Shown here: positions 9,419 through 43,731 of the stretch, one piece after another | Numbering within the stretch: the stretch's first letter is position 1 | Layout of the letters: each line of letters begins with the position of its first letter | Origin: a virus | DNA: 64,000 nt | Strand: one strand, 5' to 3' | Virus record (IMG/VR): IMGVR_UViG_3300037961_005106 | Span: 15,235 to 79,234 of that record | Program-made: the position numbers and the translations under genes | The notes under the pieces: model-generated | Seen by the model: the letters and a program-made list of their open reading frames with translations, nothing else | Told to the model about the DNA's origin: nothing | Databases searched by the model: none

Positions 9419-9443
9419 TGAATGAAATGATAAAGGGTTGACG

Positions 9444-9468
9444 CTAGGGCTTACGCAAAGCTGCCTAG
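9444..9468 (-). repeat. Family I structured spacer element, copy 1
   Basis: CUAGG-CA-GCUUUGC-GUAAGC-CCUAG; contains the stop codon of the upstream gene. Confidence 0.75.
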
Positions 9469-10400
9469 TTTTTTTTATTGAAGAAAGGTTTAAGTTGAGT
9501 TAATGCTGGAGCAGGGAAAGGAATGAATTCGTTTTCAAGCATAGCTTCAAACAAAGACCAAGCATCGTGTTGGCTATACCTTGTATCTTTGCGATACAGC
9601 TTCCACTTATTAAGAGGAGCCATTTGGCCAGACGTTGTGTAGAGAACTTGGAACTGACCAAGCTCTTGTCCTTCCCCTGGAGGAGCATACGACCAAGCTG
9701 TTGCCTTCTGACTCATCGTGCCACGTGCTGAATCAAATAGAGCAGCCCGTTTAGAAAGGAGTTCTCGCCAACGATTGATCCAAGTCAAGTGTTTACATGT
9801 AGGCTCATAGCCAGGGATTTCGGCTTGGATTTCTTTTAGGTGTAACTTTTGTTGCAAGAAAGAACCACAAGAACATTGAGGAGAATGATCTGGTTCAGTG
9901 GCAACTTCATCTGAATCATCAATACTTAAGGGAGGATTTGGATATAAGACACCATCAGGTGCAACCAAATAGCCAAAAGAATAATCAGGATTTTCTAAGA
10001 AAGCTTTCATGCCTTCTTCGTTTTGAATGTGATCAAGTTTATCTCCCCAACGTTGTTGCATAATTGATTGAGGTAAACGATATGATCCTTGAAATTGATA
10101 GTTCCAACCTTTGAATAAGACATAACAGTTGTTACGCCAAAAGCTTGGCCCCTTTAAATCAGGCCCAAGATATGAAAAGAAGTCAGGACAACGTGAACGA
10201 AAATCTTTGAAAGAATCTTTTACTTTTTGTTTGTCATATTCTTTTTCGGTTCCATCATTGTAAACAACAACCAAGTTGTTATCAACCATACAAATAGCAG
10301 AGATATCTGTATCATCAAAGTCATCAAAGGCTCTTCTAATATTTGAACGGGAATAAATAATAGATTGACCAGAATTAAGTTGTTCAATAGTTGAAGTCAT
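9465..10400 (-). CDS. SWIM zinc-finger-containing protein
   Basis: QCSCGSF...TCKHL. Confidence 0.65.
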   Translation of the reverse strand: MTSTIEQLNSGQSIIYSRSNIRRAFDDFDDTDISAICMVDNNLVVVYNDGTEKEYDKQKVKDSFKDFRSRCPDFFSYLGPDLKGPSFWRNNCYVLFKGWNYQFQGSYRLPQSIMQQRWGDKLDHIQNEEGMKAFLENPDYSFGYLVAPDGVLYPNPPLSIDDSDEVATEPDHSPQCSCGSFLQQKLHLKEIQAEIPGYEPTCKHLTWINRWRELLSKRAALFDSARGTMSQKATAWSYAPPGEGQELGQFQVLYTTSGQMAPLNKWKLYRKDTRYSQHDAWSLFEAMLENEFIPFPAPALTQLKPFFNKKN

Positions 10401-10431
10401 GGTTAGAATGAGTTAAATTAAATTAGATTAA

Positions 10432-10638
10432 ATGGCACTGAGCTTTGAATCAAGTCCAGAAGAAGAGTTCTGGAGTGTACGAATGAATCGTCACATTGAA
10501 GACTGTAGCTCAGTCAGTGAATTAAAGCAGATCGCTACGTTGCTTGTCAAGCTTGCAGCGACCCGCCAGTGCGTGATCAAAGGTCTAGTAAAAGAATCAC
10601 TAGACCGTATGGAATCAGAATTTATTATCGGCTCCTAG
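10432..10638 (+). CDS. NblA-like phycobilisome degradation protein (candidate)
   Basis: SPEEEF..RM..HIEDCSSVSELKQIA..LVK....RQ.VIK.LV fits the NblA helix-loop-helix size and pattern. Confidence 0.5.
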   Translation: MALSFESSPEEEFWSVRMNRHIEDCSSVSELKQIATLLVKLAATRQCVIKGLVKESLDRMESEFIIGS

Positions 10639-11604
10639 ATCATCACGAGATGAACTAAGAACTTGAACTTCTGTTACTCCAGCACGAGATTCAGGAAGAA
10701 TGTTTACTCCTTCCTTAATCCCATACGCCCCATTAAGACGACTAGCATCTTGCTTGGCATGTTGGTTAATGTAGTCATAGTACATCTCTTGGAATTTCCA
10801 AGTCGATTCACGATCTTCATCAGGAATGGAAAGCTTATCGAGAGAAGATAAAGCTACTTCCTGATTCTGATATTCAGGAATGTCAAATGATTCAACAGCG
10901 CAAATTTCAACGTTGTTGTTACCACGCATATCACCAGCAAGAGTGGGGCAAAAGACAGTTGTTGCGTGAAACTTCTCATTGAAATTTAAAGGCACTTCAG
11001 AATCCATGGCACGAGAAAGACACTTTGACATTTCTTTCTCATACAGTTTGATCTTCTCAGATAAATCTGTACCATTAAGACCTTTAAGCGTTAAGACCAT
11101 AGGGATCTTATGCGCACGTTTATTTTCTTTGGTAAGAATGTAAACAAGGTATTTAGTACGTACTGCATACTTACGCTTGTACATTTCATTCTTACTATTA
11201 GCAAGATCAGAAGCAGTTTTATCTGCATCCCAAAGTTCTTTAACGTCAGGATCGTTAAAGATTCCAATTATCTGACGCATGCCAGATGTTTCTTCGATCA
11301 TTAATGGTGAACGAAGGAGGATTTGGAGTCGTGGTGATTGGAGGTTGAGGCCGAGTTCTTTGCTGGTGTTTGGTGGCATGCCAAATGCATGCTCGTAGTC
11401 AAAGATAATGGAGCCTTTGTCAAAGTCACTGGGATCTGCAGTCCAACTGCAAGAGTCAAGATCTGTGTTGCGAATAAACCAACCACGTTTCTTTGATTTG
11501 TTGAGAGGTTGAATAGTAATTAAATTTTGGTATCCAGAAACAAATTTTTTGTCGCTGAATAAAGCAAACGAATCAATGTTGCGTTTAGCAAGAGCGCTTG
11601 TCAT
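10615..11604 (-). CDS. DUF5895-like protein (cyanobacterial, replication/recombination context)
   Basis: GWFI, PRLQIL.RSPL, YLVYIL...N...H.IP..LTLKG. Confidence 0.6.
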   Translation of the reverse strand: MTSALAKRNIDSFALFSDKKFVSGYQNLITIQPLNKSKKRGWFIRNTDLDSCSWTADPSDFDKGSIIFDYEHAFGMPPNTSKELGLNLQSPRLQILLRSPLMIEETSGMRQIIGIFNDPDVKELWDADKTASDLANSKNEMYKRKYAVRTKYLVYILTKENKRAHKIPMVLTLKGLNGTDLSEKIKLYEKEMSKCLSRAMDSEVPLNFNEKFHATTVFCPTLAGDMRGNNNVEICAVESFDIPEYQNQEVALSSLDKLSIPDEDRESTWKFQEMYYDYINQHAKQDASRLNGAYGIKEGVNILPESRAGVTEVQVLSSSRDDLGADNKF

Positions 11605-11634
11605 AGTGAATTCGTAGTGTGTTCGGTGTGTGAA

Positions 11635-11666
11635 ATCTGGGCCTTACCTCTATAGAGTGCCCAGAT
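11635..11666 (-). repeat. Family I structured spacer element, copy 2
   Basis: AUCUGGG-CA-CUCUAUAGAG-GUAAGG-CCCAGAU. Confidence 0.8.
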
Positions 11667-11680
11667 GTGTGTAGCTTAGC

Positions 11681-12544
11681 TCAGAATGGTTCCTTTGAGT
11701 CGTTGATGTTTAGATTGTTGTCGGGCAAAGGAGGTAAACCATTTGTGTTTGCTCCCCATGGCTCAGCAATTGCCATTGGTTCTTTAGGTTCCGCAATAGC
11801 TGCCTGATGAGGTGACTCAGGTGTTGTTGATTCTGCAGTGCGTCCACCCCATAAAGATTTAGGTGCAGAGTCATTAGCAATTGTTGTTGTTGATTTGATT
11901 GCGTTAGAAGTAACATCAGTCTTAGGTGCCAATGTCATTTGTTTCATTTGAATCTTTGTGTTGTACCGTTGTTGTTTTGAATTGTGATCAAACCAACTAT
12001 CAGTTACAAGCTGCCCCTGGATGGTAATACCAGTTCCTTTCTTGCAAAGATTAACCAAAAGCTCTGCCGGTTTAAAAGCATCATCAACTTTATTCATTGA
12101 TGTGAAGTTAAACAAGTCAGCAGCCATTTTGCCCTTGGTAACAGTCATACTCATATTGGCAATCATCAAACCACTGTCAGTTGTTTTGAATGTCATTGGA
12201 TTAGTAACATCAGGATCTTTTGCAATCCGGCCTGTCAAGATAACTGAGTTATAAATAGGGAATGAATCATCAACAACAGCAGGGTTACCACTGTGTAAAG
12301 AATGCTCACGTGCTTCTAAATCATGATGCAGTTTTGCACCATAGATAAACAAACAAGTTCCTGCTTTGATTAGTGAACGCCAGCGAGCCTGGTCCTGATA
12401 GATGTGATAGTACACCTCTGTTGGTGCTTTATTTGCACTAACAGGAGGCAGTTGTACTTTTACTTTCAAAGCAGTACGAGAGGAATCCAAATAGATTTCT
12501 TTCGGTTCTTCAGTCGCTTGAGCACAAACAAAAACTTGATTCAT
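11681..12544 (-). CDS. ssb: Single-stranded DNA-binding protein (tandem OB folds)
   Basis: NSVILTGRIAKDP, KKGTGITIQGQL.TDSW; C-terminal KEPF tail. Confidence 0.8.
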   Translation of the reverse strand: MNQVFVCAQATEEPKEIYLDSSRTALKVKVQLPPVSANKAPTEVYYHIYQDQARWRSLIKAGTCLFIYGAKLHHDLEAREHSLHSGNPAVVDDSFPIYNSVILTGRIAKDPDVTNPMTFKTTDSGLMIANMSMTVTKGKMAADLFNFTSMNKVDDAFKPAELLVNLCKKGTGITIQGQLVTDSWFDHNSKQQRYNTKIQMKQMTLAPKTDVTSNAIKSTTTIANDSAPKSLWGGRTAESTTPESPHQAAIAEPKEPMAIAEPWGANTNGLPPLPDNNLNINDSKEPF

Positions 12545-12568
12545 GATTTTAAAGTTGGATCAGAAAAG

Positions 12569-12596
12569 CTAGGACTTACATCGTAAGAATGCCTAG
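12569..12596 (-). repeat. Family I structured spacer element, copy 3
   Basis: CUAGG-CA-UUCUUACGAU-GUAAGU-CCUAG. Confidence 0.85.
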
Positions 12597-12599
12597 TAA

Positions 12600-14462
12600 T
12601 CAGTGTGTATCGTACCAGGTATAACCAGTCTTGGCATCACCTTCAATCTTGCATTGAAAGTTAAATGCTTCACCAGCAGCAGGAAAAGCATTCAAAGCAA
12701 GACGAATAATTTCATTTTCAATGCCTGGTCTACAGCTCAATTGAATTTCGTCATGAATCATTCCGTGTTGATGCCAGTCTTGTCCATAGACTAAGCCAGC
12801 ACTACTGAGATTCTTATGGATATTAATGACAACTTGTTTCATTAAAATTGCACCACAAGATTGCAACAAAACATTTAAAGCTTTGAAATCAGAGCGACAA
12901 TAAAGAGGACGCTTATCTAAACCAAGAAGATAACCACGACCAATTAAATTCTCAGCAAGTTTATTCTTTAGTTTTTGTAATGCTGGCACACCATTCATGA
13001 ACGATTGGATAGCAGCTTTGCCTAATTGTTTAAGGGCATCAGGATCCTTTTCATTAGGATCCACGATGCTACCTGCCTTAAGAAATCCAGCTCCATAAAG
13101 AACTGCATAAAGAAGTCGCTTGCTAATATCTCTAGTTTCAACACCAAACTTTTCTTGGTTATAAGTATGGATGTCTACTGAATCATCAGTAACCATTTGT
13201 CCATACTCTCCATCATCCCAGAATGCTAAATACCCAGCAAGACAACGTAATTCCAAGGCTTTAGCATCAGAACCAATAAGGATCCAATCGTCAGGAGCAT
13301 GAAATAATGAACGGCATTCCTTTCCATATGGACTATAAGCTGCGGGAATTTGAGCAGTATTTGGGTTGCGGTGGCTACACCGGCCAGTAATACAACCATT
13401 AGTAACCACGTCGCCGTGAATATAACCATCGGGAGAGACAAGCTTGATCCAAGCGTTGTTGCCATCTTTAATTTGACCTAACCGTTTCTTAAGTAACATG
13501 TATTCTGCCAGAGGTTTAGCTTCTGGATATGGAAGTTTTTCTAAGACATCGTCATTTAATACAGGGTTACCCTTCTCAGTTCTTGTCTCAGGAATCCAAC
13601 CGTATTTATTCTTTAAACGCTGAACAATTTGTTGACGTGATCCTGGATTAAACTTCTCTATTCTTTTCTTACAAAAGGGTACGTCTTTTACATAGCCACG
13701 GGAAGCATTGTTTACCTTGGGAGTAAACCATTCCTCATGTTCAATTGGTGGAAAAAGATTAACTAATTCTGTTTCGAGTTTTGTTTTGAGATGCTCAAGT
13801 TCATCCACAAAAGCAAGAGCTGCATCAATATCAAAAGGAAAACCTGATCGAATTTGTCTCTCAATACATGATGCAAAGGTGTGTTCAAGTTCGAGACAAG
13901 TTGTTGCGATTGTTTGCTTTTGGATGTGCTCAAGTAGTTTTGTTGTGACATTGACGTCTTGAATACAGTAGGACAACATCTCTTCAGAAAAAGCCGAGAA
14001 ATCTTTAAAGTCGATCTTGTAGTCGGATAACCTGTAACCCCAAGCTTTGAGTGAAGCTGACCCTTTGAGTCCACCAGGCACACGTGTGTATGAATTTGTA
14101 TCTGACTCAAGTAACTTTTCTTTCGGCCAAATGAGTCGTGTGCAGATGAGTGTGTCGATGACATGCTGTGTGTTTAGTTTGAAGTTGGGAGCTAGCTTTT
14201 GTAAGACAGGAATGTCGTAGAAAATTATATTGTGTCCGATAAGAGCATCGGCGCTATTGAGAGAATCAATAGCATCATTAATAGTATCAGGCCCGTAAGT
14301 AAAAGTTTGTTGTCGTGTGACATCGTAGATAACGATGCAGAAGATTTTAGTAACATCATCATAGAGTCCGTCAGTTTCTATATCGAATACATACCATTTA
14401 TCATTTAAAGAATTTGGCTTCAGGCTGAACTGATAACTCTTTTGAAGCGAGGTTACTGTCAT
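12600..14462 (-). CDS. polA: DNA polymerase family A, T7 gp5-like, with 3'-5' exonuclease
   Basis: Exo DIETDG, GHNIIFYD, YCIQDV; motif A DAKALELR; motif B KRLLYAVLYG (Tyr at the 762-equivalent position); motif C HDEIQ. Confidence 0.95.
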   Translation of the reverse strand: MTVTSLQKSYQFSLKPNSLNDKWYVFDIETDGLYDDVTKIFCIVIYDVTRQQTFTYGPDTINDAIDSLNSADALIGHNIIFYDIPVLQKLAPNFKLNTQHVIDTLICTRLIWPKEKLLESDTNSYTRVPGGLKGSASLKAWGYRLSDYKIDFKDFSAFSEEMLSYCIQDVNVTTKLLEHIQKQTIATTCLELEHTFASCIERQIRSGFPFDIDAALAFVDELEHLKTKLETELVNLFPPIEHEEWFTPKVNNASRGYVKDVPFCKKRIEKFNPGSRQQIVQRLKNKYGWIPETRTEKGNPVLNDDVLEKLPYPEAKPLAEYMLLKKRLGQIKDGNNAWIKLVSPDGYIHGDVVTNGCITGRCSHRNPNTAQIPAAYSPYGKECRSLFHAPDDWILIGSDAKALELRCLAGYLAFWDDGEYGQMVTDDSVDIHTYNQEKFGVETRDISKRLLYAVLYGAGFLKAGSIVDPNEKDPDALKQLGKAAIQSFMNGVPALQKLKNKLAENLIGRGYLLGLDKRPLYCRSDFKALNVLLQSCGAILMKQVVINIHKNLSSAGLVYGQDWHQHGMIHDEIQLSCRPGIENEIIRLALNAFPAAGEAFNFQCKIEGDAKTGYTWYDTH

Positions 14463-14685
14463 TTTTGTTAATCCAATTGAGTATATTCATAGCACCTGTC
14501 TTGGTTGGAGAACAAAATGCTTTTGAAATTTGAGAGTCTTTTGTTATTGGAATTAACTCAAAGACTTTGGCATCAACGTTGGGAGTGATTGCATGAGGTA
14601 TCCCTTTCAAATATGTAGTAATTAAGTACGACACAAAAAGAATTGCAGGACACATAAATAATACGCATCCTGCAAAAAAGTGCAA
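14401..14685 (-). CDS. Hypothetical protein
   Basis: ORF track; fills the gap between the Gp88-like gene and polA. Confidence 0.45.
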   Translation of the reverse strand: MHFFAGCVLFMCPAILFVSYLITTYLKGIPHAITPNVDAKVFELIPITKDSQISKAFCSPTKTGAMNILNWINKNDSNLASKELSVQPEAKFFK

Positions 14686-14689
14686 CTAA

Positions 14690-15460
14690 TTATTTTGAAT
14701 ATCCTGTCCAGGTTCCCTCACGTTTGCGTGCATTTAATGCAGCTTGCGCAGCAGATCCCTTGCGTTGAACACCATGAACAAGTAGAGCAAAGGGTTTATC
14801 ACCAAAGCAATGACTATCATCATGGTCAATCTCTAAACCAAGATCAGCAGCTTCTTGTTCTGTATAAACTACATGAGCGATGCGCTTAAAGACATGCCCG
14901 TATCTGGAAAGGAGAGGATCGAGATTACCCCCAACTGAAGCAGTGAGAAACAGGTTAGAAGGAATGTCATCTTGATTGTTGAGCCAGTAGCTAAGTTGTT
15001 TTGTGTAGGCATAGAACTTAATTTCAGGGTGTTGACGAGCAACTTCGAGCCAAGCTTTGAAATAGATTTCAGACCAGAAATCACCTGACTCATGGATGCG
15101 ACACAAGTTATATTTAACTTTGTTTTTATTATGCTGCCATATGCCATATGCAATTGTATCTTCTAATGCACCTTGAGGATTTTGTACGCCTTCGCCATAA
15201 AGAGTTTCTTTAATGGCATCCCAATTGTGCCAACGTGCATCGCGGCATGGTTTGCTACGTGCTTCAGACATTGCAGCAAAACATCTGTACTCCTCACCAG
15301 TAGCATGAGCTGATTGTGGCAAGTCACGAATCGTACCTGTAGTTCTGTCTGCAAAAGTTTTGCAATGACCAGCATTAGGACAGGTGTAACCCGCTGGTAA
15401 AGAAAAGATTAGACGTTTACCAAGCTTGGCATTGCCTGTAGAGAACTTTAGGATGTGCAT
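14690..15460 (-). CDS. Gp88-like Cys-rich protein (start reassigned to ATG 15460)
   Basis: GNAKL, FSLPAGYTCP..G.C, CFA, RIHESGDF, YAYTK; the longer ORF-track start runs through a family I element. Confidence 0.7.
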   Translation of the reverse strand: MHILKFSTGNAKLGKRLIFSLPAGYTCPNAGHCKTFADRTTGTIRDLPQSAHATGEEYRCFAAMSEARSKPCRDARWHNWDAIKETLYGEGVQNPQGALEDTIAYGIWQHNKNKVKYNLCRIHESGDFWSEIYFKAWLEVARQHPEIKFYAYTKQLSYWLNNQDDIPSNLFLTASVGGNLDPLLSRYGHVFKRIAHVVYTEQEAADLGLEIDHDDSHCFGDKPFALLVHGVQRKGSAAQAALNARKREGTWTGYSK

Positions 15461-15482
15461 GAGATGAAATGAAGTGGATTGA

Positions 15483-15520
15483 ATGGGACTTACAACACAC
15501 ATTACTGTGTGTATGCCCAT
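15483..15520 (-). repeat. Family I structured spacer element, copy 4
   Basis: AUGGG-CA-UACACACAGUAAUGUGUGUU-GUAAGU-CCCAU. Confidence 0.85.
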
Positions 15521-15524
15521 GAGT

Positions 15525-15950
15525 TTAACTACAATACTCTGTATTTTGTTCTCTTTGGTATTGAGTCATAATTCTTTTTGCTTTCCAAACAGCAGCATCA
15601 TTAATAAATTTATCAAGGGTGCAACCAATTAAAGCAGCAGCTTCTCTCATATCTTTTAACTCTTGTGCTTCAAACTTTACAGTAACTTTAGTCTTTATTT
15701 CTTTAGCTTTTACCCAATCAATATTCTCTTTTACCCAATCATCAACTTCTTTTTTAACGTAATAGTTTGAGCCTTTGGAACCAGGGTTAACAGGCGAAGG
15801 AAAGATACCTTCTTTTGTCTTACGAATCAAAGTGAATCGTGACATTAGTGTCAAGTCAAGTACTTGTTGCGTTGTGTAAAAATTCGATCGCTCTTTCCCC
15901 CTGGGTATGGTTGAAGAAACAGCAGCGTGAAATTGATTTTCTGGAAGCAT
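15525..15950 (-). CDS. AlpA-like HTH regulator with a C-terminal ribbon-helix-helix-like region
   Basis: QVLDLT.MSR.TL.R..KEG.FPSPV......Y...EV..W; VTVKF...E....REAA...G.TL.KFI. Confidence 0.65.
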   Translation of the reverse strand: MLPENQFHAAVSSTIPRGKERSNFYTTQQVLDLTLMSRFTLIRKTKEGIFPSPVNPGSKGSNYYVKKEVDDWVKENIDWVKAKEIKTKVTVKFEAQELKDMREAAALIGCTLDKFINDAAVWKAKRIMTQYQREQNTEYCS

Positions 15951-15980
15951 GATGGATTGATTTGGTCTAGGATAAAGGAA

Positions 15981-16031
15981 CGTTCACCTCAGTGCGAGGC
16001 GCAATTCACTAGGCAAGGAACGGGGCCTAGG
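15981..16031 (+). ncRNA. Glutamine-II (Downstream-peptide) riboswitch
   Basis: CGUUC/GAACG P1, CCUC/GAGG P2, CGCA linker, pseudoknot CUAGGC(16009-14)/GCCUAG(16025-30), GGAACGGGG core; directly upstream of an LTYRGV.Y peptide. Confidence 0.85.
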
Positions 16032-16049
16032 CTTTAGCGGAGAACTCTC

Positions 16050-16193
16050 ATGCAACTCACCTACCGTGGGGTTAAGTACCAGGCACAGACTGGTTTGATG
16101 GCTCATCTTCTCAAAAAACATGAGGAAGAGTTACGTGCAAAAAAAGAATTAGCACGTGACAAAGAGTCCATGAAAGCAACCTCAGTCTTTTAA
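16050..16193 (+). CDS. DUF4278 family small protein, 47 aa (not in ORF track)
   Basis: Hand translation MQLTYRGVKYQAQTGLMAHLLKKHEEELRAKKELARDKESMKATSVF; GGAG upstream. Confidence 0.85.
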   Translation: MQLTYRGVKYQAQTGLMAHLLKKHEEELRAKKELARDKESMKATSVF

Positions 16194-16387
16194 GACCAAG
16201 GCCAGCTTAACTCAACGTCAGCTTGCCAGACATCTGGATCAATCTGACGTTCACTAACATATTGATTGAATAGGCGTTTCATTTCTTCTAATGAGATGCC
16301 TATTTCTTTTGCTTTAACGGCTACATTAGTTTGCCCACGGTAGATAAGATCAAGAGCATCTTCCAAAGAGGTTACAGTCTTGTGCAT
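16190..16387 (-). CDS. Hypothetical protein
   Basis: ORF track; HTH-like AKEIGISLEEMKR. Confidence 0.55.
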   Translation of the reverse strand: MHKTVTSLEDALDLIYRGQTNVAVKAKEIGISLEEMKRLFNQYVSERQIDPDVWQADVELSWPWS

Positions 16388-16844
16388 CAGGAGTCATGTA
16401 CTCAGGAATATCAAAATCACAACAGTCATTCTCTTGGTGATAATGCTTACAGTTTAAACATATAATTGCTTTCTTGTTTAAATATTTTCCAGCATCTGCT
16501 TCAGGAAGTTCAATCGTTGTAATGCGATAATCACAAGCCTGGCATTGCTTTTGTCGTCGTCGATAACCACTACCATTTAATCTGCTTTCAATAACTTTTA
16601 GAAAACGCCTCCCACAATTGGGACACTTTTCCATGATGGATGCTCTTGCTGCTTTGAGTTGATCTGCTGTTGGCATTACAAAAGGTTTACGAGAAAAAAT
16701 ACCTGAGCATTGTCGTGAACAAAAAATTTTAAGACGCCCACGTTTTATGTTTGCTTTATGCAACCACTTTGAACGTTTAAAAAGTTTTCCACAACACTCA
16801 CATTTCAGTTGAAGCTCACTTTTATTTAACAGAGTGTGTTCCAC
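16350..16844 (-). CDS. Multi zinc-finger protein with an NrdR-like Zn ribbon
   Basis: CECC..FCSRQC; CPNCG...VIESR.....RRRQKQCQACDYRITTIE; CLNC..CC..C. Confidence 0.65.
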   Translation of the reverse strand: MEHTLLNKSELQLKCECCGKLFKRSKWLHKANIKRGRLKIFCSRQCSGIFSRKPFVMPTADQLKAARASIMEKCPNCGRRFLKVIESRLNGSGYRRRQKQCQACDYRITTIELPEADAGKYLNKKAIICLNCKHYHQENDCCDFDIPEYMTPDAQDCNLFGRCS

Positions 16845-17500
16845 ATTGCCTCCGAAATAATTGGAAACTGCTGCATAAAAATTGTTTTACATTTTTGAGC
16901 AATCTCTTTGTGTTCTTCTTGCGTACCGTTGGCGGTGCGAAGATCAATGTAATGAAGCCAAGAACGAAGAGTACCATTCATGTACATTTTTGTAGGGGCA
17001 TTAGGCAAGACAGAACGAGCACATTCTTTTGCAATGCCGTCACTTAACATCTCTTGGTATAGATGTTCAGCATCTTCAAAGAGAACGCCAATGCGACGGT
17101 AATACTCAGAGACTTTAGGTTTACCTAAACGTTCTTCTAAATCATCAAATGATTTTTGACGATTCTTCAGATCTTGTGAGCGTAAATGTGGAATCAATGG
17201 ACGACCAATTTCATTTGTATTGGCATAGCGTTGTGAAAATTCCTGGAATGAAAATGATCTGTGCCTTAATATTTGAGGACTAATTGTCCGTGTAGTGTGT
17301 ACTTCTAAGCACATGTTGGCCATTTCAAAAGGAGACCAATGGCCATGTTTAATTAAATAACGTAAGAGCTTTGGACCTGTGTCCATGTTGTCTTCGTTTC
17401 TTGGAGCTGAGACTCTTGCAGTACGTACGATCATACGCTCTGCTTCATCAGTACGCCAAACTAATGAGACGGTGTGAGGTGAGAACATAGCGGATGTCAA
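16826..17500 (-). CDS. thyX: Flavin-dependent thymidylate synthase
   Basis: HWSPFE, QILRHRSFSFQEFSQRY, ECARSVLP, LR...TQ.EH. Confidence 0.95.
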   Translation of the reverse strand: MTSAMFSPHTVSLVWRTDEAERMIVRTARVSAPRNEDNMDTGPKLLRYLIKHGHWSPFEMANMCLEVHTTRTISPQILRHRSFSFQEFSQRYANTNEIGRPLIPHLRSQDLKNRQKSFDDLEERLGKPKVSEYYRRIGVLFEDAEHLYQEMLSDGIAKECARSVLPNAPTKMYMNGTLRSWLHYIDLRTANGTQEEHKEIAQKCKTIFMQQFPIISEAMWNTLC

Positions 17501-17784
17501 TTGATTTTCTCTCGTTCATTCTTAACAACTGCGTCGATTGCTGCCTGATTAGGAGCTAAAGCAATACGCATTGTCATATGCCATTCAGAAGAGGATGAAC
17601 CATCCCATTGAATGAGGAGCCAAGGCATAAGAGTGCCCCTTGCATTTGATTTGTATTGAACTTCGTGGACAGTACCTAGCTTTGTTCTTGGAGGAAGAGC
17701 GCCTTTAATGTTGCTCATCATTGATCTAGGTTTGTGGATGACTCGGTCACCAACATTGAATTGAACTTGTTTGCGTTTAGTCAT
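17497..17784 (-). CDS. Hypothetical SH3/KOW-like protein
   Basis: FNVGDRV...GTV..V...IQWDG. Confidence 0.55.
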   Translation of the reverse strand: MTKRKQVQFNVGDRVIHKPRSMMSNIKGALPPRTKLGTVHEVQYKSNARGTLMPWLLIQWDGSSSSEWHMTMRIALAPNQAAIDAVVKNEREKIN

Positions 17785-17940
17785 TGAGAATTAGTATGCA
17801 GAGAAATACCCGGCTGCAGCAACAACCGGGTAAGTAGTACACGCCCCTACCGAAGGATAGATCAGGTGCTAAGGCTGATCTGGACGTATCTTAGTGAGTG
17901 CAATTAGGTGGGTCAAGTTGAAAAGTATTAAGTTAATTGT

Positions 17941-18028
17941 TGGTAGGAGTGGCGAGACTTGAACTCGCACGGCCATAGTGGCCCACAGATTTTAAGTCTG
18001 ATGTGTCTACCGATTCCACCACACTCCC
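17941..18028 (-). tRNA. trnL: tRNA-Leu(UAA) with encoded CCA
   Basis: GGGAGTG/CACTCCT acceptor, GGAATCGGTAGAC D-arm, CTTAAAA anticodon loop, long variable arm GGCCACTATGGCC, GCGAG-TTCAAGT-CTCGC T-arm, ACCA end. Confidence 0.95.
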
Positions 18029-18031
18029 AGG

Positions 18032-18068
18032 CTAGGACTTACACCAAAACTTTGTATTGGATGCCTAG
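18032..18068 (-). repeat. Family I structured spacer element, copy 5 (3 nt before the tRNA 5' end)
   Basis: CUAGG-CA-UCCAAUACAAAGUUUUGGU-GUAAGU-CCUAG. Confidence 0.85.
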
Positions 18069-18082
18069 ACGGTTACCTTTGT

Positions 18083-18364
18083 TTACTCATCGAGTTGCCA
18101 GTCAAGATCTAATTCTTCTAAGAATTGAATCTTGTCATAGTCAGTACCATCAATAGGTGGTGGTAGATCATCATGTTCTAGTGAAAAGCATGCACTACAA
18201 ATCCCTGGGCCATACTCTGCAGGATGTGCAAGCTCTGGTGGATTGTAACAAGGAGCAAGTGTTTGCACCATGTTATCAATTTGGGCAGTAGCAATCCAGT
18301 GAGTAGTTCCATTAGAGTCTGTTTGATCTAAATCAATGTCGTAAACAAGAAGAATAAGTTTCAT
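18083..18364 (-). CDS. Hypothetical acidic protein
   Basis: PAEYGPGIC motif; ATGA coupling. Confidence 0.6.
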   Translation of the reverse strand: MKLILLVYDIDLDQTDSNGTTHWIATAQIDNMVQTLAPCYNPPELAHPAEYGPGICSACFSLEHDDLPPPIDGTDYDKIQFLEELDLDWQLDE

Positions 18365-18600
18365 TTGCGCACCGTAAGATGTTTAACCATGGTGTAACCC
18401 ATAGATTTGATGTCAGTAGCTTTAGAAGCAAAGATTCCATTAGGCCCGTACTCCTCAAAGAGTTCGGGCCATGTGGTTAAGATCTTTTGCTGGTTACGTA
18501 AATCAGATCTACGGTAGAGAGCAGCAAGTCCTTTGACAAAACCGCCACCATAGGTTTCCATTCGATCAAGAGTTTGATCAAGGTGTTGAGTAGTAATCAT
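18361..18600 (-). CDS. Hypothetical protein
   Basis: M..YGGGFVK.LA..Y..SD..NQ..I...WPE.F..Y, a common phage early-gene pattern. Confidence 0.65.
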   Translation of the reverse strand: MITTQHLDQTLDRMETYGGGFVKGLAALYRRSDLRNQQKILTTWPELFEEYGPNGIFASKATDIKSMGYTMVKHLTVRK

Positions 18601-18627
18601 GAATTGAATTGAATGAACAGTGAGAGT

Positions 18628-18660
18628 CTAGGACTTACATGTTGGGGATACAATGCCTAG
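18628..18660 (-). repeat. Family I structured spacer element, copy 6
   Basis: CUAGG-CA-UUGUAUCCCCAACAU-GUAAGU-CCUAG. Confidence 0.85.
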
Positions 18661-18723
18661 TAATAAGTATTTACTTAAAGGTATATAAGTATTCTTGGTG
18701 GCCCTCCGGGGGTGCAGGGGGCT

Positions 18724-18915
18724 TTATTGTTCCTTAATGTTTGCCAAGTATCTAGCATATGCTCCCCTCTTTGGGGCACGATACTTTCTATTCTGTGGCT
18801 GTGGCTTCTTAGTTACATAGACACGCTGTCCGTTTCGCATGTAGTAAAGACCTCCGCGTTTACCTTCGATGAGCTCAACGTTAGTAGGCAATGCGCTTAC
18901 ATGATTCAACGTCAT
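18724..18915 (-). CDS. Small basic hypothetical protein
   Basis: G.RGGLYY...G.RVYV motif; ATGA coupling. Confidence 0.6.
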   Translation of the reverse strand: MTLNHVSALPTNVELIEGKRGGLYYMRNGQRVYVTKKPQPQNRKYRAPKRGAYARYLANIKEQ

Positions 18916-19184
18916 TCGTTGTCAGACCACATGTCAGGTTTAGAGTTGTGCTCCGGCAGATCAGGAGTCCTGAAGTCTGGGAGCTCAGTCGATACTACAT
19001 TACGGAAGCTGATTCCGGTACCGGGGAGCCCTAAAGATCCCCGGATGCCGTGTTCGCTAAGGTTTGCTGTGACTTGGAAGGGACCAACCTTGATTGTCTT
19101 GGAGTAGGACTTAACACCACGTTCAGTGATGTTGATGCCTGCAATAGTTTTGTCAAAGTTGATCAGTGATTTCTTTCGTGCCAT
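18912..19184 (-). CDS. DUF4236-like protein
   Basis: KTIKVGPF...NLS..GI..S.G.PGTGISFR. Confidence 0.55.
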   Translation of the reverse strand: MARKKSLINFDKTIAGINITERGVKSYSKTIKVGPFQVTANLSEHGIRGSLGLPGTGISFRNVVSTELPDFRTPDLPEHNSKPDMWSDNE

Positions 19185-19350
19185 GGTTTGTGTGTTGGAG
19201 TGAAGTGACAAAGAAGTAACTAGCTGTATCTCTATGATGTTTGATATGTACGTCAGTCTTGGAGCATCTGATTCTTAACTCAGTGCCATCCGGTAAGATA
19301 ACAAAGAGTGTTTGCTCAGGTAGTGCATCAATTGTTGGCATAGAATACAA
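19153..19350 (-). CDS. Hypothetical protein
   Basis: ORF track. Confidence 0.45.
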   Translation of the reverse strand: MYSMPTIDALPEQTLFVILPDGTELRIRCSKTDVHIKHHRDTASYFFVTSLQHTNHGTKEITDQL

Positions 19351-19381
19351 TGAATGATAAGGTTTGCTTATGTCCTGGATG

Positions 19382-19633
19382 TTATTTCCAGTACATTTGA
19401 CGGATGTAATACCAAAGTACTTCTTCAGTTAAGCTGCACCCTGGGTTCTCCGCCAATAACTTAACTGCTTCGTCAAGTTCTTTTTGTGAACCATTGGCAT
19501 AAGTAACGGACCATGCAACATCTTCCATGCGTTCCCATAAAGCTGTAGCTTCTGGGGTTAACTTGGAATGACGAGGTAGATCACGTCCTTTTGCTTCATA
19601 ATGTTCACCATAAATGTCTTTAACTGTGTCCAT
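19382..19633 (-). CDS. Hypothetical protein
   Basis: ORF track; preceded by a family I element. Confidence 0.6.
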   Translation of the reverse strand: MDTVKDIYGEHYEAKGRDLPRHSKLTPEATALWERMEDVAWSVTYANGSQKELDEAVKLLAENPGCSLTEEVLWYYIRQMYWK

Positions 19634-19661
19634 AAATTAAGTTAAGTTGACATGAAAAAGC

Positions 19662-19689
19662 CTGGGACTTACGCATGATAGCTGCCCAG
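19662..19689 (-). repeat. Family I structured spacer element, copy 7
   Basis: CUGGG-CA-GCUAUCAUGC-GUAAGU-CCCAG. Confidence 0.85.
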
Positions 19690-19716
19690 AAGTGAGTTAG
19701 AGTCTGTTGTTAGTAT

Positions 19717-20085
19717 CTAGCAATAGTGAGGCCGCTCGGTGGGATAGTGTGTTGCATACCCTGAGCCGAGGGTGGCCTGAGTTGCGGAAAGATTTCGACT
19801 GTCACAGATGCTTCCTTGGTTGAATAGGTCGTAATGTTTCGTGAGTTCGAGGCAACGTCTGATGCATTGCTTTTTGGAGAAGATGCAGTGGGTGGCGATG
19901 GCTTGACCAACTTCGTACCACCATCCTCCTTCTTCTGGCCCACCGTACGCTTGGTAGACTTCGTGGATTTTGATTGTCTTTGGGGCTTCACCACTAAAGC
20001 TTTCTGCCCAGTTGTATTGGTCAATCCAATATCTTGTTGCGCCTGTACGGGGGTAACGTTTGAGGTAGGCGTTTGCGAGGGCCAT
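19717..20085 (-). CDS. Hypothetical protein
   Basis: AYGGPEEGGWWY and YP..RPHYC motifs, recalled from phage early proteins. Confidence 0.7.
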   Translation of the reverse strand: MALANAYLKRYPRTGATRYWIDQYNWAESFSGEAPKTIKIHEVYQAYGGPEEGGWWYEVGQAIATHCIFSKKQCIRRCLELTKHYDLFNQGSICDSRNLSATQATLGSGYATHYPTERPHYC

Positions 20086-20139
20086 AGAAGAAGTGATAGA
20101 AGAGCAAGAATGTGATCGATGATGTGGTATTCAGTTGTG

Positions 20140-20319
20140 TTAGAACTTCCCATCAGGATGCTGTGAGATAAAGTTTTCGTAGTCAGGATCAATGCCTTCG
20201 GGAGGATCCATTTCCTCTCGCATTGCTTGCTCCTGTTGATAGGCGATGTCAGCAAGGATGTCAATCTCATCCTGCTTAATTTGTTTAGTGAGGCGGTCGA
20301 GTTCAGACATGGTTGACAT
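20140..20319 (-). CDS. Hypothetical acidic protein (start reassigned to ATG 20319)
   Basis: The ORF-track N-terminal extension runs through family I copy 8. Confidence 0.55.
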   Translation of the reverse strand: MSTMSELDRLTKQIKQDEIDILADIAYQQEQAMREEMDPPEGIDPDYENFISQHPDGKF

Positions 20320-20345
20320 GATGTTAAATTGAATGGGTATTAAAG

Positions 20346-20410
20346 ACTGGGACTTACGTTGTTGAGGTACTCCAGGTATTGGCCTGATGTAATTCGACAT
20401 ACTGCCCAGT
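20346..20410 (-). repeat. Family I structured spacer element, copy 8 (long apical insert)
   Basis: ACUGGG-CA-GU...AC-GUAAGU-CCCAGU. Confidence 0.75.
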
Positions 20411-20415
20411 GCATT

Positions 20416-20775
20416 TTACTGAGGTGGACTACATGCATCAGCGTAGAGAAAACTACCGCTCCAGTCAGCCTTATGTAACGCAGCCGCATAAGAACTGTCG
20501 TTTAATAAGTTGTAACGTACTTGACGTATTGGAGAACAATAGGAGGCAGGCTTGTAAACATTCCCTTTGCTATCAATGAAGCACCATGTTTCAGTAGTAG
20601 GACCACCCAACATGTTCTTCCATGAGATTGTTAGCTCAAGTCTGATGTACTTTCTACCTTGGTATTGACGGAATGTAAGAGATTTCTCACGTTCCTTAAC
20701 ACCTTTTCGATAGTACTTACTGATGGCAGACTCAGTAAGGTTGTTGATGCGTTCTTGAAGGATTGATGTTGTCAT
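20416..20775 (-). CDS. Cyanophage-type hypothetical protein
   Basis: GRKY.R...FID..G.VYKPAS...P...VRY.L...DW.G.FLY. Confidence 0.7.
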   Translation of the reverse strand: MTTSILQERINNLTESAISKYYRKGVKEREKSLTFRQYQGRKYIRLELTISWKNMLGGPTTETWCFIDSKGNVYKPASYCSPIRQVRYNLLNDSSYAAALHKADWSGSFLYADACSPPQ

Positions 20776-20777
20776 GA

Positions 20778-20975
20778 TTAACAGGCAGGTCCATAGTATT
20801 TCTCCAGCCCCCTGGGACAGACCGGTGACTCATAGTTGAGTGCATAAGTGCCTGCACCTATCAGTGCTAGGCATGTAATGACACCAACAATGATGGGCGC
20901 TGTGAGAGGGGGACGGGAGTATGAATCGAGTGTGACGTACTTGTTCTTGCCAAGACGTACTGTGTGAATTGCCAT
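20778..20975 (-). CDS. Small membrane protein (likely start MAIHTV)
   Basis: Hydrophobic IIVGVITCLALIGAG; ATG just after the upstream stop. Confidence 0.5.
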   Translation of the reverse strand: MAIHTVRLGKNKYVTLDSYSRPPLTAPIIVGVITCLALIGAGTYALNYESPVCPRGLEKYYGPAC

Positions 20976-20976
20976 G

Positions 20977-21240
20977 TCAAGTCTGCGTATTGAGTTTGAA
21001 GGTGTCAAGATGTTTAGTAATGAAACCAGAATCCCAGATAGTAGGTAAGCATTGCTCACTTACTGTTTCTTGGATGCCATCGACAATGGTCATGACACGA
21101 CACCAATTAGTGTTCTTGTCAGGATGATGTGCGATAACGCAGGCAGTATAGTCATCTCCTTCTGAGAAGACCATCCACTTAAGTTCCTGGGCTTGTTTGA
21201 TTGCCCATTCCCTAAGCTCACTAGTCGTTGGTGAAGTCAT
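20977..21240 (-). CDS. Hypothetical protein
   Basis: ORF track; preceded by a family I element. Confidence 0.6.
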   Translation of the reverse strand: MTSPTTSELREWAIKQAQELKWMVFSEGDDYTACVIAHHPDKNTNWCRVMTIVDGIQETVSEQCLPTIWDSGFITKHLDTFKLNTQT

Positions 21241-21259
21241 TTGGAATTGAATGAGGTGT

Positions 21260-21295
21260 ACCCTGGGACTTATACACTGATGTGATGCCCAGGGT
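21260..21295 (-). repeat. Family I structured spacer element, copy 9
   Basis: ACCCUGGG-CA-UCACAUCAGUGU-AUAAGU-CCCAGGGU. Confidence 0.8.
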
Positions 21296-21416
21296 GTAGT
21301 TATAGTTACAATTTAGTTGTAAAGAGATGCATACAATTACTACAGTTGAATTAATAGAATGGCAGTAGCAACAGTTGTATGCATGCTCGGGATGAGTGCG
21401 TTAGGTGCTTGGTTAT

Positions 21417-21776
21417 TTACACCGCGTACTCGTATGTGAACTGACGCTCTAGTTGATGCCAAGCATTACGACAAGCGTCATAGATCTCCTTGCGATTCTT
21501 ATACACAATCACTGCTCCTTCCCAGGTAAGCTGAGTTAGCAGAATGATTAATGCAATCGCATGGATAATTAACCACCGTAGTGGTTTATGTAGATGTCTA
21601 CGGTAGAACTTACCTACCTGGTAGCCAGCATTGTATGTGTGACGAACGAGGTTCGCCATGAAGTTGAGGCAGAACAGAATAGCTGTGATGCTAAACAGTT
21701 CGCCGCCGATAGCGTAAAGACGTACGGCAGCAGTGATGAAGCTGTCAACATGAGACAGCAGATGAAGAGTAGTCAT
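21417..21776 (-). CDS. Hypothetical membrane protein
   Basis: Two hydrophobic segments; TY.AG..VG..Y motif. Confidence 0.6.
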   Translation of the reverse strand: MTTLHLLSHVDSFITAAVRLYAIGGELFSITAILFCLNFMANLVRHTYNAGYQVGKFYRRHLHKPLRWLIIHAIALIILLTQLTWEGAVIVYKNRKEIYDACRNAWHQLERQFTYEYAV

Positions 21777-21798
21777 GAGTTTGAATTGAATAAAGGAT

Positions 21799-21852
21799 TG
21801 TGCAGGAGTGAGTCCTGCAGAAAACCCCCGAAGGGGCTTAGTGCAGAAGTCA
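21799..21852 (-). repeat. Family II structured spacer element, copy 1
   Basis: UGACUU-CUGCA-CU-AAGCCCC-UUCG-GGGGUUU-UC-UGCAG-GACUCACUCCUGCACA. Confidence 0.75.
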
Positions 21853-22176
21853 TTTAGACATAAGACTTTCTAGGTATTCACGTTCAAGGCAAATACCGTA
21901 GTTGTAGTAGTCTTTCATCTCTTCCCATAGATCTTTAACCCTGGTAGGCATCTCCATCAATGTACGAACATCGATGTCAATCCATTCATAGTTACCATCG
22001 AAGTTTGGCGTTGCAACGATGCCCCACTTTTGGAAGTGAAGCTGTGTTGATTCACCACCGTACCAAGCGATACGATAGATACGTTTGTCAGCATCGACAG
22101 GACGATCAGGTTGATAGATAAGAAGATCACGTTTGATAGACGGCCAGGTGGATGGGTCGTCAGTGTATTCAGTCAT
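21850..22176 (-). CDS. Hypothetical protein
   Basis: ORF track; flanked by the two family II elements. Confidence 0.6.
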   Translation of the reverse strand: MTEYTDDPSTWPSIKRDLLIYQPDRPVDADKRIYRIAWYGGESTQLHFQKWGIVATPNFDGNYEWIDIDVRTLMEMPTRVKDLWEEMKDYYNYGICLEREYLESLMSK

Positions 22177-22200
22177 TGGTTTGACTTAAGTTGAGTTGAA

Positions 22201-22254
22201 CACAGGATGTAGAGTCCTGCAGAGAAGGGCCGAAGCCCCTCAGTGCAGAAGTCA
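22201..22254 (-). repeat. Family II structured spacer element, copy 2
   Basis: UGACUU-CUGCA-CU-GAGGGGC-UUCG-GCCCUUC-UC-UGCAG-GACUCUACAUCCUGUG. Confidence 0.75.
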
Positions 22255-22256
22255 GG

Positions 22257-22403
22257 TTACTTCCTTCTACCTTGATAGATTTTGAAAGCAAGGAAAGCAC
22301 ATGCAGCACCAACTGGTAGGCCGACTAAAGCAGCCATACCAATAATGCCAGCACTTGTTCCATAAGATACAAGATCATCGGTAGATTTAGAGAGTTTGGT
22401 CAT
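22257..22403 (-). CDS. Small membrane protein, 48 aa (not in ORF track)
   Basis: Hand translation MTKLSKSTDDLVSYGTSAGIIGMAALVGLPVGAACAFLAFKIYQGRRK; ATGA coupling. Confidence 0.5.
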   Translation of the reverse strand: MTKLSKSTDDLVSYGTSAGIIGMAALVGLPVGAACAFLAFKIYQGRRK

Positions 22404-22594
22404 TGACCTAGATAGCGAATGTGCATACAAGCTTTAGCATCACCTACCCACGATGTTAACGTGACTATGCGATGGTAATCAGGTTGAGCTCTGCAAGTCT
22501 CTATTGCACGTTGGTTCAGATGCTTCTGACCAGCAACAGATAGAAGACCTCCTAAACCTATGCCTAGAATTACAGCAAGGTACGACTTAGCCAT
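22400..22594 (-). CDS. Small protein with N-terminal TM/signal segment
   Basis: LAVILGIGLGGLLSVAG. Confidence 0.55.
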   Translation of the reverse strand: MAKSYLAVILGIGLGGLLSVAGQKHLNQRAIETCRAQPDYHRIVTLTSWVGDAKACMHIRYLGQ

Positions 22595-22614
22595 AGTTAC
22601 AAATAAGAATGAAG

Positions 22615-22638
22615 AAAAAAGGGGACTTTACAGCCCCC
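22615..22638 (-). terminator. Terminator-like hairpin that is also a minimal family I variant
   Basis: GGGGG-CU-GUAAAGU-CCCC-UUUUUU on the minus strand. Confidence 0.55.
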
Positions 22639-23024: not shown

Positions 23025-23100
23025 GTTGTGTGGTGCCCATCTCCACTGAGGGCAATAACTGGACCAGGGTTTGCACCTGGTCACCCGCTTTAACGGATCA
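23025..23100 (-). repeat. Family III structured element, copy C (T-loop hairpin plus pseudoknot-like module)
   Basis: CCGUUAAAGCGG-GU-GACCAGG UGCAAAC CCUGGUC-CAGUUAU-UGCCC UCA GUGG AGAU GGGCA CCAC ACA. Confidence 0.85.
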
Positions 23101-23331
23101 GCTAAGCAGCTTGATTGCATACTTGGCAATCTCTGCTGCATGTTCCCTGGTTAGTACCTGGGAGTGTCCGTCCTCCATCAGATTTCTAATCTGTTGGAAG
23201 ACAATCTCGCCAGACTCTTCACGAGTAGGAACGTGAGTTTCCTCACGAAGGCGAGTGGGTAACCCCATCTCTTGTGCTGCCATCGCATCAGGCGATGTAG
23301 CGTAAAGAGCGGAGTTGGTGTAGTTGGTCAC
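23098..23331 (-). CDS. Hypothetical protein (GTG start 23331)
   Basis: AGGAG 7 nt upstream of the GTG; in frame with ORF track 23098..23391. Confidence 0.6.
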   Translation of the reverse strand: MTNYTNSALYATSPDAMAAQEMGLPTRLREETHVPTREESGEIVFQQIRNLMEDGHSQVLTREHAAEIAKYAIKLLS

Positions 23332-23345
23332 AGGTATTCTCCTGT

Positions 23346-23418
23346 GTGTGCAGTGCCTATCTCTGCTGGAGGCAATAACTGTCAGGGGCATTGAACCCCT
23401 GATGCCAGCCTTTACTGG
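23346..23418 (-). repeat. Family III structured element, copy B
   Basis: CCAGUAAAGGCUGG-CA-UCAGGGG UUCAAUG CCCCUGA-CAGUUAU-UGCCU CCA GCAG AGAU AGGCA CUGC ACAC. Confidence 0.85.
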
Positions 23419-23603
23419 TCAGCTAAGGCAGCTAACTCTGCACGAGTTGGCAGTCCGGCTTCAATGTCAATTAAATCCTGTTCGCATTCAATGACAGTGT
23501 CACCCCCGTAGACGTACGGAGGCTGACCATCTTTCTCAGCCATCTCATTGAGAGTGGTTGGAAAGGTAAGGTCATAACCGGGAACCTTGTTGTTGGTGCT
23601 CAC
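23412..23603 (-). CDS. Hypothetical acidic protein (GTG start 23603)
   Basis: AGGAG 6 nt upstream of the GTG; C-terminal part of ORF track 23412..23843. Confidence 0.6.
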   Translation of the reverse strand: MSTNNKVPGYDLTFPTTLNEMAEKDGQPPYVYGGDTVIECEQDLIDIEAGLPTRAELAALADQ

Positions 23604-23616
23604 AGGTAACTCCTGC

Positions 23617-23691
23617 GTGTGCGGTACCCATCTCCGCTGTGGGTAAGAAGTGCCAGGGGGATTGCACCCCTGGTCCCGCTTTAACGGATCA
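23617..23691 (-). repeat. Family III structured element, copy A
   Basis: CCGUUAAAGCGG-GA-CCAGGGG UGCAAUC CCCCUGG-CACUUCU-UACCC ACA GCGG AGAU GGGUA CCGC ACAC. Confidence 0.85.
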
Positions 23692-43693: not shown

Positions 43694-43731
43694 TAAGAAT
43701 AAAAGTCAAAATTATTAATTTGGAGAAATAG

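Follow-up and report, generated by a model that had tools for sequence, protein, structure and literature searches.

The 64,000-nt window analysed here covers bases 15235-79234 of the 79,234-bp virus record IMGVR_UViG_3300037961_005106, which bears direct terminal repeats; all positions below refer to the window unless another locus is named. Its minus strand carries nine copies of a small RNA hairpin, which we call Family I. Family I is an uncatalogued and widespread RNA family of 25-60 nt with an almost invariant core. It occurs on a single strand per locus ahead of start codons, tRNAs and guide RNAs, and in related genomes its place is taken by a pseudoknot that resembles the coremin motif of plant RNA viruses. 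We tentatively read Family I as a module at the 5' boundary that would define and protect the 5' end of the downstream RNA, a reading that we prefer without holding it to be probable. The sharing of slots and the occurrence before mRNAs, tRNAs and VIPR guide RNAs point to a modular RNA punctuation that sets and protects 5' ends in hosts possessing both RNase E and RNase J.

Copies of Family I in the window

A covariance model (CM), termed R1, was built from 18 copies with a 10-nt apical part that aligned without gaps (three from the window, 15 from relatives), and the window was searched with it on both strands with filters off. R1 yielded nine sites, all on the minus strand. The matches at 12565-12600, 11633-11668 and 19658-19693 were obtained by construction, as these window copies had been used in building the model. 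Four further matches, at 21259-21296, 18624-18664, 18028-18072 and 9440-9472, had E-values of 9e-8 to 3.5e-6, and weaker ones were found at 15484-15519 (E 0.004) and 20343-20379 (E 0.07); the last value is explained by the long apical insert (45 nt) of the copy at 20347-20409. The 3' half of the motif, GTAAGNCCYR, occurred eight times in the window, each time on the minus strand, against an expectation of 1.26. Neither the plus strand nor the late arm of the window gave an R1 match better than E 0.16, in agreement with the preliminary description of this DNA, which had noticed no late-arm copy. That description had counted ten copies. Nine of them were recovered by R1 or by pattern, whereas the tenth, a supposed minimal variant at 22621, had no R1 match at E<=10 and resembles a terminator. 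The nine copies, the rejected hairpin and the tRNA that follows copy 5 are as follows.

21263-21292, minus strand: copy 1, 22 nt before ATG 21240 of an 87-aa open reading frame (ORF); CM 30.7 bits, E 9e-8
20347-20409, minus strand: copy 2, with a branched apical insert of 45 nt, 27 nt before ATG 20319 (59-aa ORF); pattern match, CM E 0.07
19662-19689, minus strand: copy 3, 28 nt before ATG 19633 (83-aa ORF); CM 47.1 bits, model-building copy
18628-18660, minus strand: copy 4, 27 nt before ATG 18600 (79-aa ORF); CM 30.3 bits
18032-18068, minus strand: copy 5, ending 3 nt before tRNA-Leu(UAA); CM 26.4 bits
17941-18028, minus strand: tRNA-Leu(UAA), the RNA downstream of copy 5; ARAGORN, Rfam tRNA 56 bits
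15483-15520, minus strand: copy 6, basal stem AUGGG/CCCAU, 22 nt before ATG 15460 of a 256-aa GP88-family protein (Pfam PF17338); CM E 0.004
12569-12596, minus strand: copy 7, 3 nt past the stop codon of the DNA polymerase gene and 24 nt before ATG 12544 of the single-stranded DNA-binding protein (SSB); CM 49 bits, model-building copy
11637-11664, minus strand: copy 8, 32 nt before ATG 11604 of a 329-aa DUF5895 protein (Pfam); CM 47.2 bits, model-building copy
9444-9468, minus strand: copy 9, the shortest with 25 nt, 25 nt before ATG 9418 (37-aa ORF); CM 26 bits
22620-22639, minus strand: not a member; terminator-like G+C-rich hairpin with a T-run, listed by the terminator scan

All copies were intergenic except for a single overlap with a stop codon, as had been described: copy 9 covers the stop 9465-9467 of a 311-aa ORF. 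In eight of the nine, the start ATG of an ORF followed the motif end after 22-32 nt. The placement described earlier, with nine copies about 19-30 nt before an ATG, is thus confirmed for eight copies, together with the one copy 3 nt before tRNA-Leu.

Fold and covariation

Across 179 distinct copies the Family I core reads C-U-R-G-G-C-A, followed by a variable hairpin and by G-U-A-A-G-U-C-C-Y-A-G. The basal helix of 6-7 bp, in which CURGGC faces G(U)CCYAG with one U probably bulged, is conserved in sequence, and the asymmetric internal loop, an A opposite GUAA, is fixed. The apical hairpin is free in sequence, measures 6-45 nt and most often has a U.U mismatch as its closing position. The near-invariant CA/GUAAGU loop and the free apical part, both noticed in the window before, thus hold for the larger sample. 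In most copies the basal helix has 5-7 bp and the upper helix 2-8 bp, commonly about 9-12 bp in total. No conserved positions were found upstream beyond the helix.

The basal stem had been described as covarying, and the pair counts bear this out. At the basal R/Y pair the first set of copies contained G-C 41 times, A-U 17 times, and G-U and U-A twice each, and the second set G-C 106 times, U-A 10 times and A-U six times; an unpaired combination was found in neither. Two columns of the upper stem covaried as well (C-G 41 and U-A 20; C-G 32, A-U 12, G-C 6 and U-A 3). The observed covariation score was reached in 0 of 500 shuffles in each of the two separate sets, and slide controls likewise remained far under it. 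The position adjacent to the loop was occupied by U.U in 104 copies, by G-C in 28, by C-G in 20, by G-U in 17 and by U-G in none. In true helix columns 13 G-U combinations stood against two A-C combinations, an asymmetry which identifies the sense strand as the folding strand. The folding energies of sense and antisense strands differed weakly (-9.9 versus -9.4 kcal/mol), and the G-U counts are more informative in this respect.

A variant with GGUA...GUAAAUCC precedes the tRNA in the related loci L017 and L030. Tentatively, a pair may form between the C of GGCA and the second G of GUAAGU, so that a U bulges out and an A faces GUAA in the internal loop; this pairing is tentative because the change from C-G to U-A comes from a single orthologous tRNA site. 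A pairing of UAAGU with ACUUA in the leader was considered and rejected, since ACTTA was merely mildly enriched and was so in the leaders of the alternative module (see below) as well. K-turns, the 11-nt tetraloop receptor, the S8 site of 16S helix 21 and the cores of the hammerhead and hairpin ribozymes do not appear to fit in strand order or core bases. To our knowledge, 25 nt is too small for any known self-cleaving fold.

Distribution

The phage of the window is a 79-kb relative of Synechococcus phage S-EIV1 (79,178 bp); the two phages share 66% identity in their family-A DNA polymerases, compared with about 43% between the polymerase of the window phage and those of T7-like marine podoviruses. 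Its tRNA-Leu(UAA), which resembles cyanomyovirus tRNAs, and a Glutamine-II riboswitch point to a cyanobacterial host. The leftward genes, on the minus strand from about 24.7 kb, include those for thymidylate synthase, the GP88-family protein, DNA polymerase, SSB and the DUF5895 protein (PHROG, Pfam), and the plus-strand arm holds terminase, a virion structural protein, the major head protein and tail genes.

Family I is not private to this phage and recurs in hundreds of contigs from uncultured cyanophages. In a related set of 23 IMG/VR loci fetched via the polymerase, together with S-EIV1 and the window (500 kb, both strands), R1 found 67 copies, and all 67 lay on the polymerase-sense strand. 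An exact-pattern scan of IMG/VR gave a wider set of at least 119 stretches, in which at least 144 R1 copies in at least 80 stretches were counted among the matches listed. Both sets combined contain at least 211 R1 copies in at least 95 loci, and no locus has copies on both strands. In about half of the listed IMG/VR stretches (fetched stretches up to 15 kb) no protein in common with the window phage was detectable. Family I is present in three or more unrelated groups of contigs of cyanophage type. The unrelated contigs range in G+C content from 0.28 to 0.65 and keep the same sequence. A single copy precedes the major capsid gene in contigs related to the Synechococcus myovirus S-CBWM1, and S-CBWM1 itself has none. 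In these contigs (L069:3780-3860 and about 17 similar loci, e.g. L059, L090, L094 and L098) Family I is followed by a second small palindrome, a Shine-Dalgarno sequence and the major capsid gene.

Among the cultured phages checked, S-EIV1 was the sole carrier of Family I. The commonest variant had no match in the deposited phage collection. Two scans of 185,579 prokaryotic genomes gave no match and then five, the latter judged to be at or below chance and not scored with the model. The same sequence in unrelated contigs and its absence from bacteria are harder to reconcile with a phage protein specific to one lineage than with a self-contained RNA fold or an enzyme common to the hosts. The motif had not been recognised as a described one, and comparison with Rfam 15 agreed with this: no match overlapped any Family I copy in the window at E<=10, and the gathering score was reached in the window only by the tRNA and the Glutamine-II riboswitch. 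Rfam searches of five related loci returned tRNAs only. No publication describing the motif was found.

Placement before leaders, tRNAs and guide RNAs

The bond to strand and start codon seen in the window also exists in other loci, where, for 71% of the 178 distinct copies, the 'CC' of the motif is followed after 25-39 nt by the first ATG. The spacing to the preceding stop codon is variable, from -1 to 127 nt. The leaders after the copies contain 6% G and words such as TCAAC, TCATT and ATTCA (e.g. window 18600-18627 and 15460-15482); a Shine-Dalgarno sequence is lacking, as had been noted. Such G-poor leaders suggest a distinct mode of translation initiation.

Family I is also found directly upstream of non-coding RNAs. 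Among the 35 tRNAs in the loci, 12 have a copy 0-8 nt upstream; 11 of these are tRNA-Leu(UAA), one in the window and ten in related loci, and one is a tRNA-Asn in an unrelated 109-kb contig. In seven G+C-rich loci a copy stands 3-4 nt before 12-16 tandem GGYNN repeats, a layout described for the guide RNAs (vrRNAs) of VIPR systems (preprint 10.64898/2026.04.26.720920). These loci (L035, L046, L060, L073, L085, L137 and L149) have a conserved sequence containing TTTGAAG upstream of the hairpin. As Family I precedes mRNA leaders, tRNAs and guide RNAs, its role is general to the 5' sides of RNAs and not one in translation as such, and a translation-specific element, proposed earlier, is disfavoured by the same element standing directly before tRNAs and VIPR repeats.

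In L112 and L150 the Family I hairpin is followed by a T-run and then by a conserved non-coding stretch ending in ...TAGATTAGCCTTGCGCTC, and a AATGCGCACC box upstream is common to both; the stretch after the hairpin may be a small RNA gene. A possible -10 element, with no convincing -35 element, lies upstream of the copies in L106, L112 and L150.

An alternative module in the same slots

In many of these intergenic slots S-EIV1 and the more distant relatives contain a second element, Family II, with the consensus N-G-U-C-C-[YRRGY]-AU-GACN'-UUAAACU-[RCYYR]. In 64 copies chosen regardless of pairing, its interleaved helices were 91.5% paired, versus 75.6% in shuffles. For six of the nine pairs at least three standard pair types were seen, and G-U pairs numbered 37. 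Judged by this pairing, Family II is an RNA pseudoknot of the H-type. It lies 19-31 nt ahead of start codons; the pattern had no match in the genome of the window phage. Within Family II, GUCC...GACGUUAAACU matches the coremin motif GUCCGAAGACGUUAAACUAC (PMC10520033). Coremin RNAs resist Xrn1 and combine a short hairpin with a conserved spacer and a second helix (PMC6546385). Family II sites were recorded on the minus strand of S-EIV1 (L009) near 25900, 30494, 33583, 38790, 39509 and 42993, and in L016-L033.

The slot upstream of SSB is filled by Family I in the clade of the window phage (L011-L016) and by Family II in L017-L027, L030, L031, L033 and S-EIV1. S-EIV1, a phage of Synechococcus PCCC-A2c, carries both modules, with two copies of Family I and at least eight of Family II, and the two are interleaved along one strand of single genomes. 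A gap common to both was found in only three cases among 339 and 151 loose pattern matches. The exchange in orthologous slots and the near-exclusive use of gaps therefore indicate that Family I and Family II behave as alternative fillers of one functional slot. One of the three shared gaps, L079:349-470, contains two tandem Family I copies with a Family II copy within 12 nt downstream.

A possible boundary of RNA 5' ends

The readings of Family I as a processing site and as a 5'-stabilising hairpin, both suggested at the outset, remain the two leading ones. According to the reading preferred here, Family I would be transcribed within early and replication transcripts and act in cis, from a slot that borders the ribosome-binding region of the gene that follows or lies a few nucleotides before a tRNA or guide RNA. 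Cleavage upstream, or attack from the 5' end, would precede protection. The folded module would then stop or exclude RNase J, a 5'-3' exonuclease, and RNase E with its 5' sensing, and each cistron, pre-tRNA or guide RNA would thereby survive as a separate unit. Bacterial RNase J1 is blocked by a folded exoribonuclease-resistant RNA (xrRNA) (PMC5760640), and RNase E and RNase J are both essential in cyanobacteria (PMC8682795). The 5' boundary reading is favoured because of these two facts and of the coremin-related alternate found in the Family I slots. If it is true, phages would have their first xrRNA-type elements, and a compact part for stabilising cyanobacterial transcripts would be at hand. 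A stronger version, which we regard as possible but rather doubtful, would make Family I a new class of nuclease-resistant RNA that needs no protein, a universal 5' shield for mRNAs, pre-tRNAs and VIPR guides. With it the xrRNA principle of eukaryotic RNA viruses would also apply to bacteriophages and RNase J, and coremin-like pseudoknots would belong to the same repertoire.

The data above establish the structure, strand specificity, placement and spread of Family I and its exchange with the coremin-like pseudoknot; we infer both the nuclease resistance or exclusion by its fold and the nuclease involved, and several points weigh against such protection. The hairpins are predicted to be only modestly stable (-3 to -19 kcal/mol), and no plain hairpin of such strength is known to halt RNase J. 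A search of Family I for ring-closing or pseudoknot contacts found none, the mutual information between the variable loop and the flanks being at the null level. The tight spacing to the ATG could result in part from genome compaction and the need for a free leader. By our comparison Family I lacks the structural features that define coremin, and its link to xrRNAs is one of association only. Furthermore, a roadblock would leave a hairpin of 25-60 nt at the 5' side of the VIPR guide RNAs, which is absent from their description (preprint 10.64898/2026.04.26.720920).

Comparison with known systems

The coremin or xrRNA-C elements of beny-, cucumo- and other plant RNA viruses (PMC6546385, PMC10520033) share with Family I a fold of less than 50 nt and the succession of a short hairpin and a linker that is A-rich and conserved (GUUAAAC in coremin, GUAA in Family I), and a coremin-like pseudoknot fills Family I slots in relatives. 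The first hairpin of coremin (hp1), however, has 3-4 bp and a YGAD loop, whereas the apical part of Family I is free and 6-45 nt long. Instead of the 10-nt spacer GUUAAACUAC and the second hairpin (hp2), Family I has a GUAA/GUAAGU linker and then the 3' strand of the basal helix. Its topology is nested, with the 3' strand pairing back 5' of the hairpin, and it stands upstream of genes in a DNA phage, while coremin is located in the 3' untranslated region of RNA viruses.

The stabiliser hairpins of the E. coli ompA leader and of B. subtilis phage SP82 likewise stand 5' of an unstructured leader and start codon, with a proposed effect on 5'-end-dependent decay. They are individual hairpins without a common sequence, unlike Family I, which is repeated, has a fixed loop and also precedes non-coding RNAs. 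The RNase III sites of phage T7 (R0.3, R1.1 and others) resemble Family I in that hairpins with an asymmetric internal loop recur between cistrons upstream of early genes, but they have a helix of about 20 bp, or some two helical turns around the loop, and little common sequence, in contrast to the roughly 9-12 bp, near-invariant loop and basal helix of Family I. The hammerheads of VIPR arrays are placed, like Family I, directly at the vrRNA boundary (preprint 10.64898/2026.04.26.720920); Family I has neither a hammerhead core nor an Rfam ribozyme match. PeSL (promoter-early stem-loop) cassettes of T4-type phages and the start-associated sequences of Cluster K mycobacteriophages are also repeats ahead of many genes with mosaic breakpoints at the copies. 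Unlike PeSL, Family I has no sigma-70 promoter attached, and its covariation shows that it is the fold, not a duplex sequence, that is selected.

Other explanations

An endoribonuclease of host or phage might instead cut within or just 3' of the hairpin, thereby separating cistrons and freeing the 5' ends of tRNAs and guide RNAs. The hairpin ends 3-11 nt from mature tRNA starts and 3-4 nt from the first vrRNA repeat, the very position that hammerhead ribozymes hold in other VIPR arrays (preprint 10.64898/2026.04.26.720920), and the strongly conserved paired and loop bases would suit recognition by an enzyme. A site-specific RNase activity not known so far would then be indicated. We nevertheless consider such processing rather unlikely. 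No candidate enzyme is known, and a helix of about 9-12 bp with an internal loop is short for an RNase III substrate, which speaks against the earlier analogy with T7 sites. The 5' ends of tRNAs are already made by RNase P, and a cut would leave 5'-monophosphate ends, which RNase J and RNase E prefer. The slot held in common with a coremin-like roadblock would also be left unexplained. Still less probable is an operator on which one RNA-binding protein of phage or host would set the translation or stability of an early and replication regulon. Conserved unpaired bases beside a free apical loop do resemble protein-bound operators, and both the fixed ATG distance and the confinement of the copies to one arm of the window genome would fit. 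Yet copies precede tRNAs and guide RNAs, the same sequence recurs in contigs without a detectable common protein (in the fetched stretches of up to 15 kb), and a structurally different pseudoknot replaces Family I at orthologous sites; no RNA-binding family was found among the window proteins scanned with Pfam, PHROGs and Atlas.

A role at the DNA level, as a hairpin-type promoter for a phage RNA polymerase (RNAP) or as a recombination or priming hairpin bounding gene cassettes, appears very unlikely. The two halves, TGGGCA and GTAAG, are similar to the Syn5 promoter ATTGGGCACCCGTAA with the following +1 G (PMC3950665), and downstream RNAs start a few nucleotides after the hairpin. An insert of 7-57 nt splits the supposed promoter, however, and covariation and the excess of G-U over A-C would be meaningless for duplex recognition. 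The two natural Syn5 promoters have neither the closing CCCAA/CCCAG arm nor the insert, so that the resemblance leaves this reading a low probability only; the combination of a contiguous 15-23 bp duplex and a cognate RNAP gene that marks Syn5-type promoters was not found with Family I. No T7-like RNAP was detected, PF00940 giving nothing in six frames and Syn5 RNAP matching only the polA palm in tblastn (E 0.001), and no sigma-70-type promoter was seen at any copy. N4-type hairpin promoters have a 5-7 bp stem and a 3-nt loop on the template strand and serve a giant virion RNAP, whereas Family I folds on the sense strand with variable and long loops. The largest ORF (1093 aa) had no polymerase match, and the proteins of 787, 774, 1093 and 810 aa had no polymerase-like match in Pfam, PHROGs or Atlas. 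As to cassettes, homology blocks between the window and L012, L014, L015 and L016 do start or stop at copies: by hand count about 14 of 74 block ends fell within about 40 nt of a copy, versus about 4.5 expected. The DUF5895 gene downstream of the copy at 11637-11664, for instance, is replaced in L012-L015, and the homology block with L012 and L014 ends there. Breakpoints in conserved intergenic sequence would be expected anyway, and we read the block ends as recombination at such sequence, a consequence and not a function. The cassette boundary suggested earlier is correct in part, while the G-U asymmetry and the replacement by an RNA pseudoknot point to a function in RNA. The least probable explanation is that the hairpin acts between genes as an attenuator or as an intrinsic terminator of the leaky kind. 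A T-run does follow some copies, the flank upstream is rich in A, and an excess of T is seen at +5/+6 behind the stem. A run of at least four Ts within 10 nt, though, is present in only 19 of 178 copies, which excludes a terminator for most of them; the Ts begin 2 nt after the stem, and the downstream genes have no promoters of their own. The terminator scan picked none of the nine window copies, yet found three ordinary terminators in the same arm.

Further features of the window

Several other elements were recorded in the window. Terminator-like hairpins lie on the minus strand of the same arm at 17807-17832, 22 nt ahead of an ATG at 17784, and at 14643-14675, where a gap of about 180 nt begins that precedes the gene for DNA polymerase. 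The Glutamine-II riboswitch at 15978-16031 (plus strand; 43.4 bits versus a gathering score of 33) is on the strand opposite to the surrounding genes and is followed by a 47-aa ORF at 16050-16193 (plus strand). A 43-nt hairpin element is present in two copies, at 21810-21852 and 22212-22254, whose flanks are identical and whose inner stems covary. Another element, about 80 nt long, stands three times between the first early genes (23027-23106, 23347-23427 and 23618-23697), and a similar sequence is found upstream of the S-EIV1 genes at 43267-43419 and 43496-43732.

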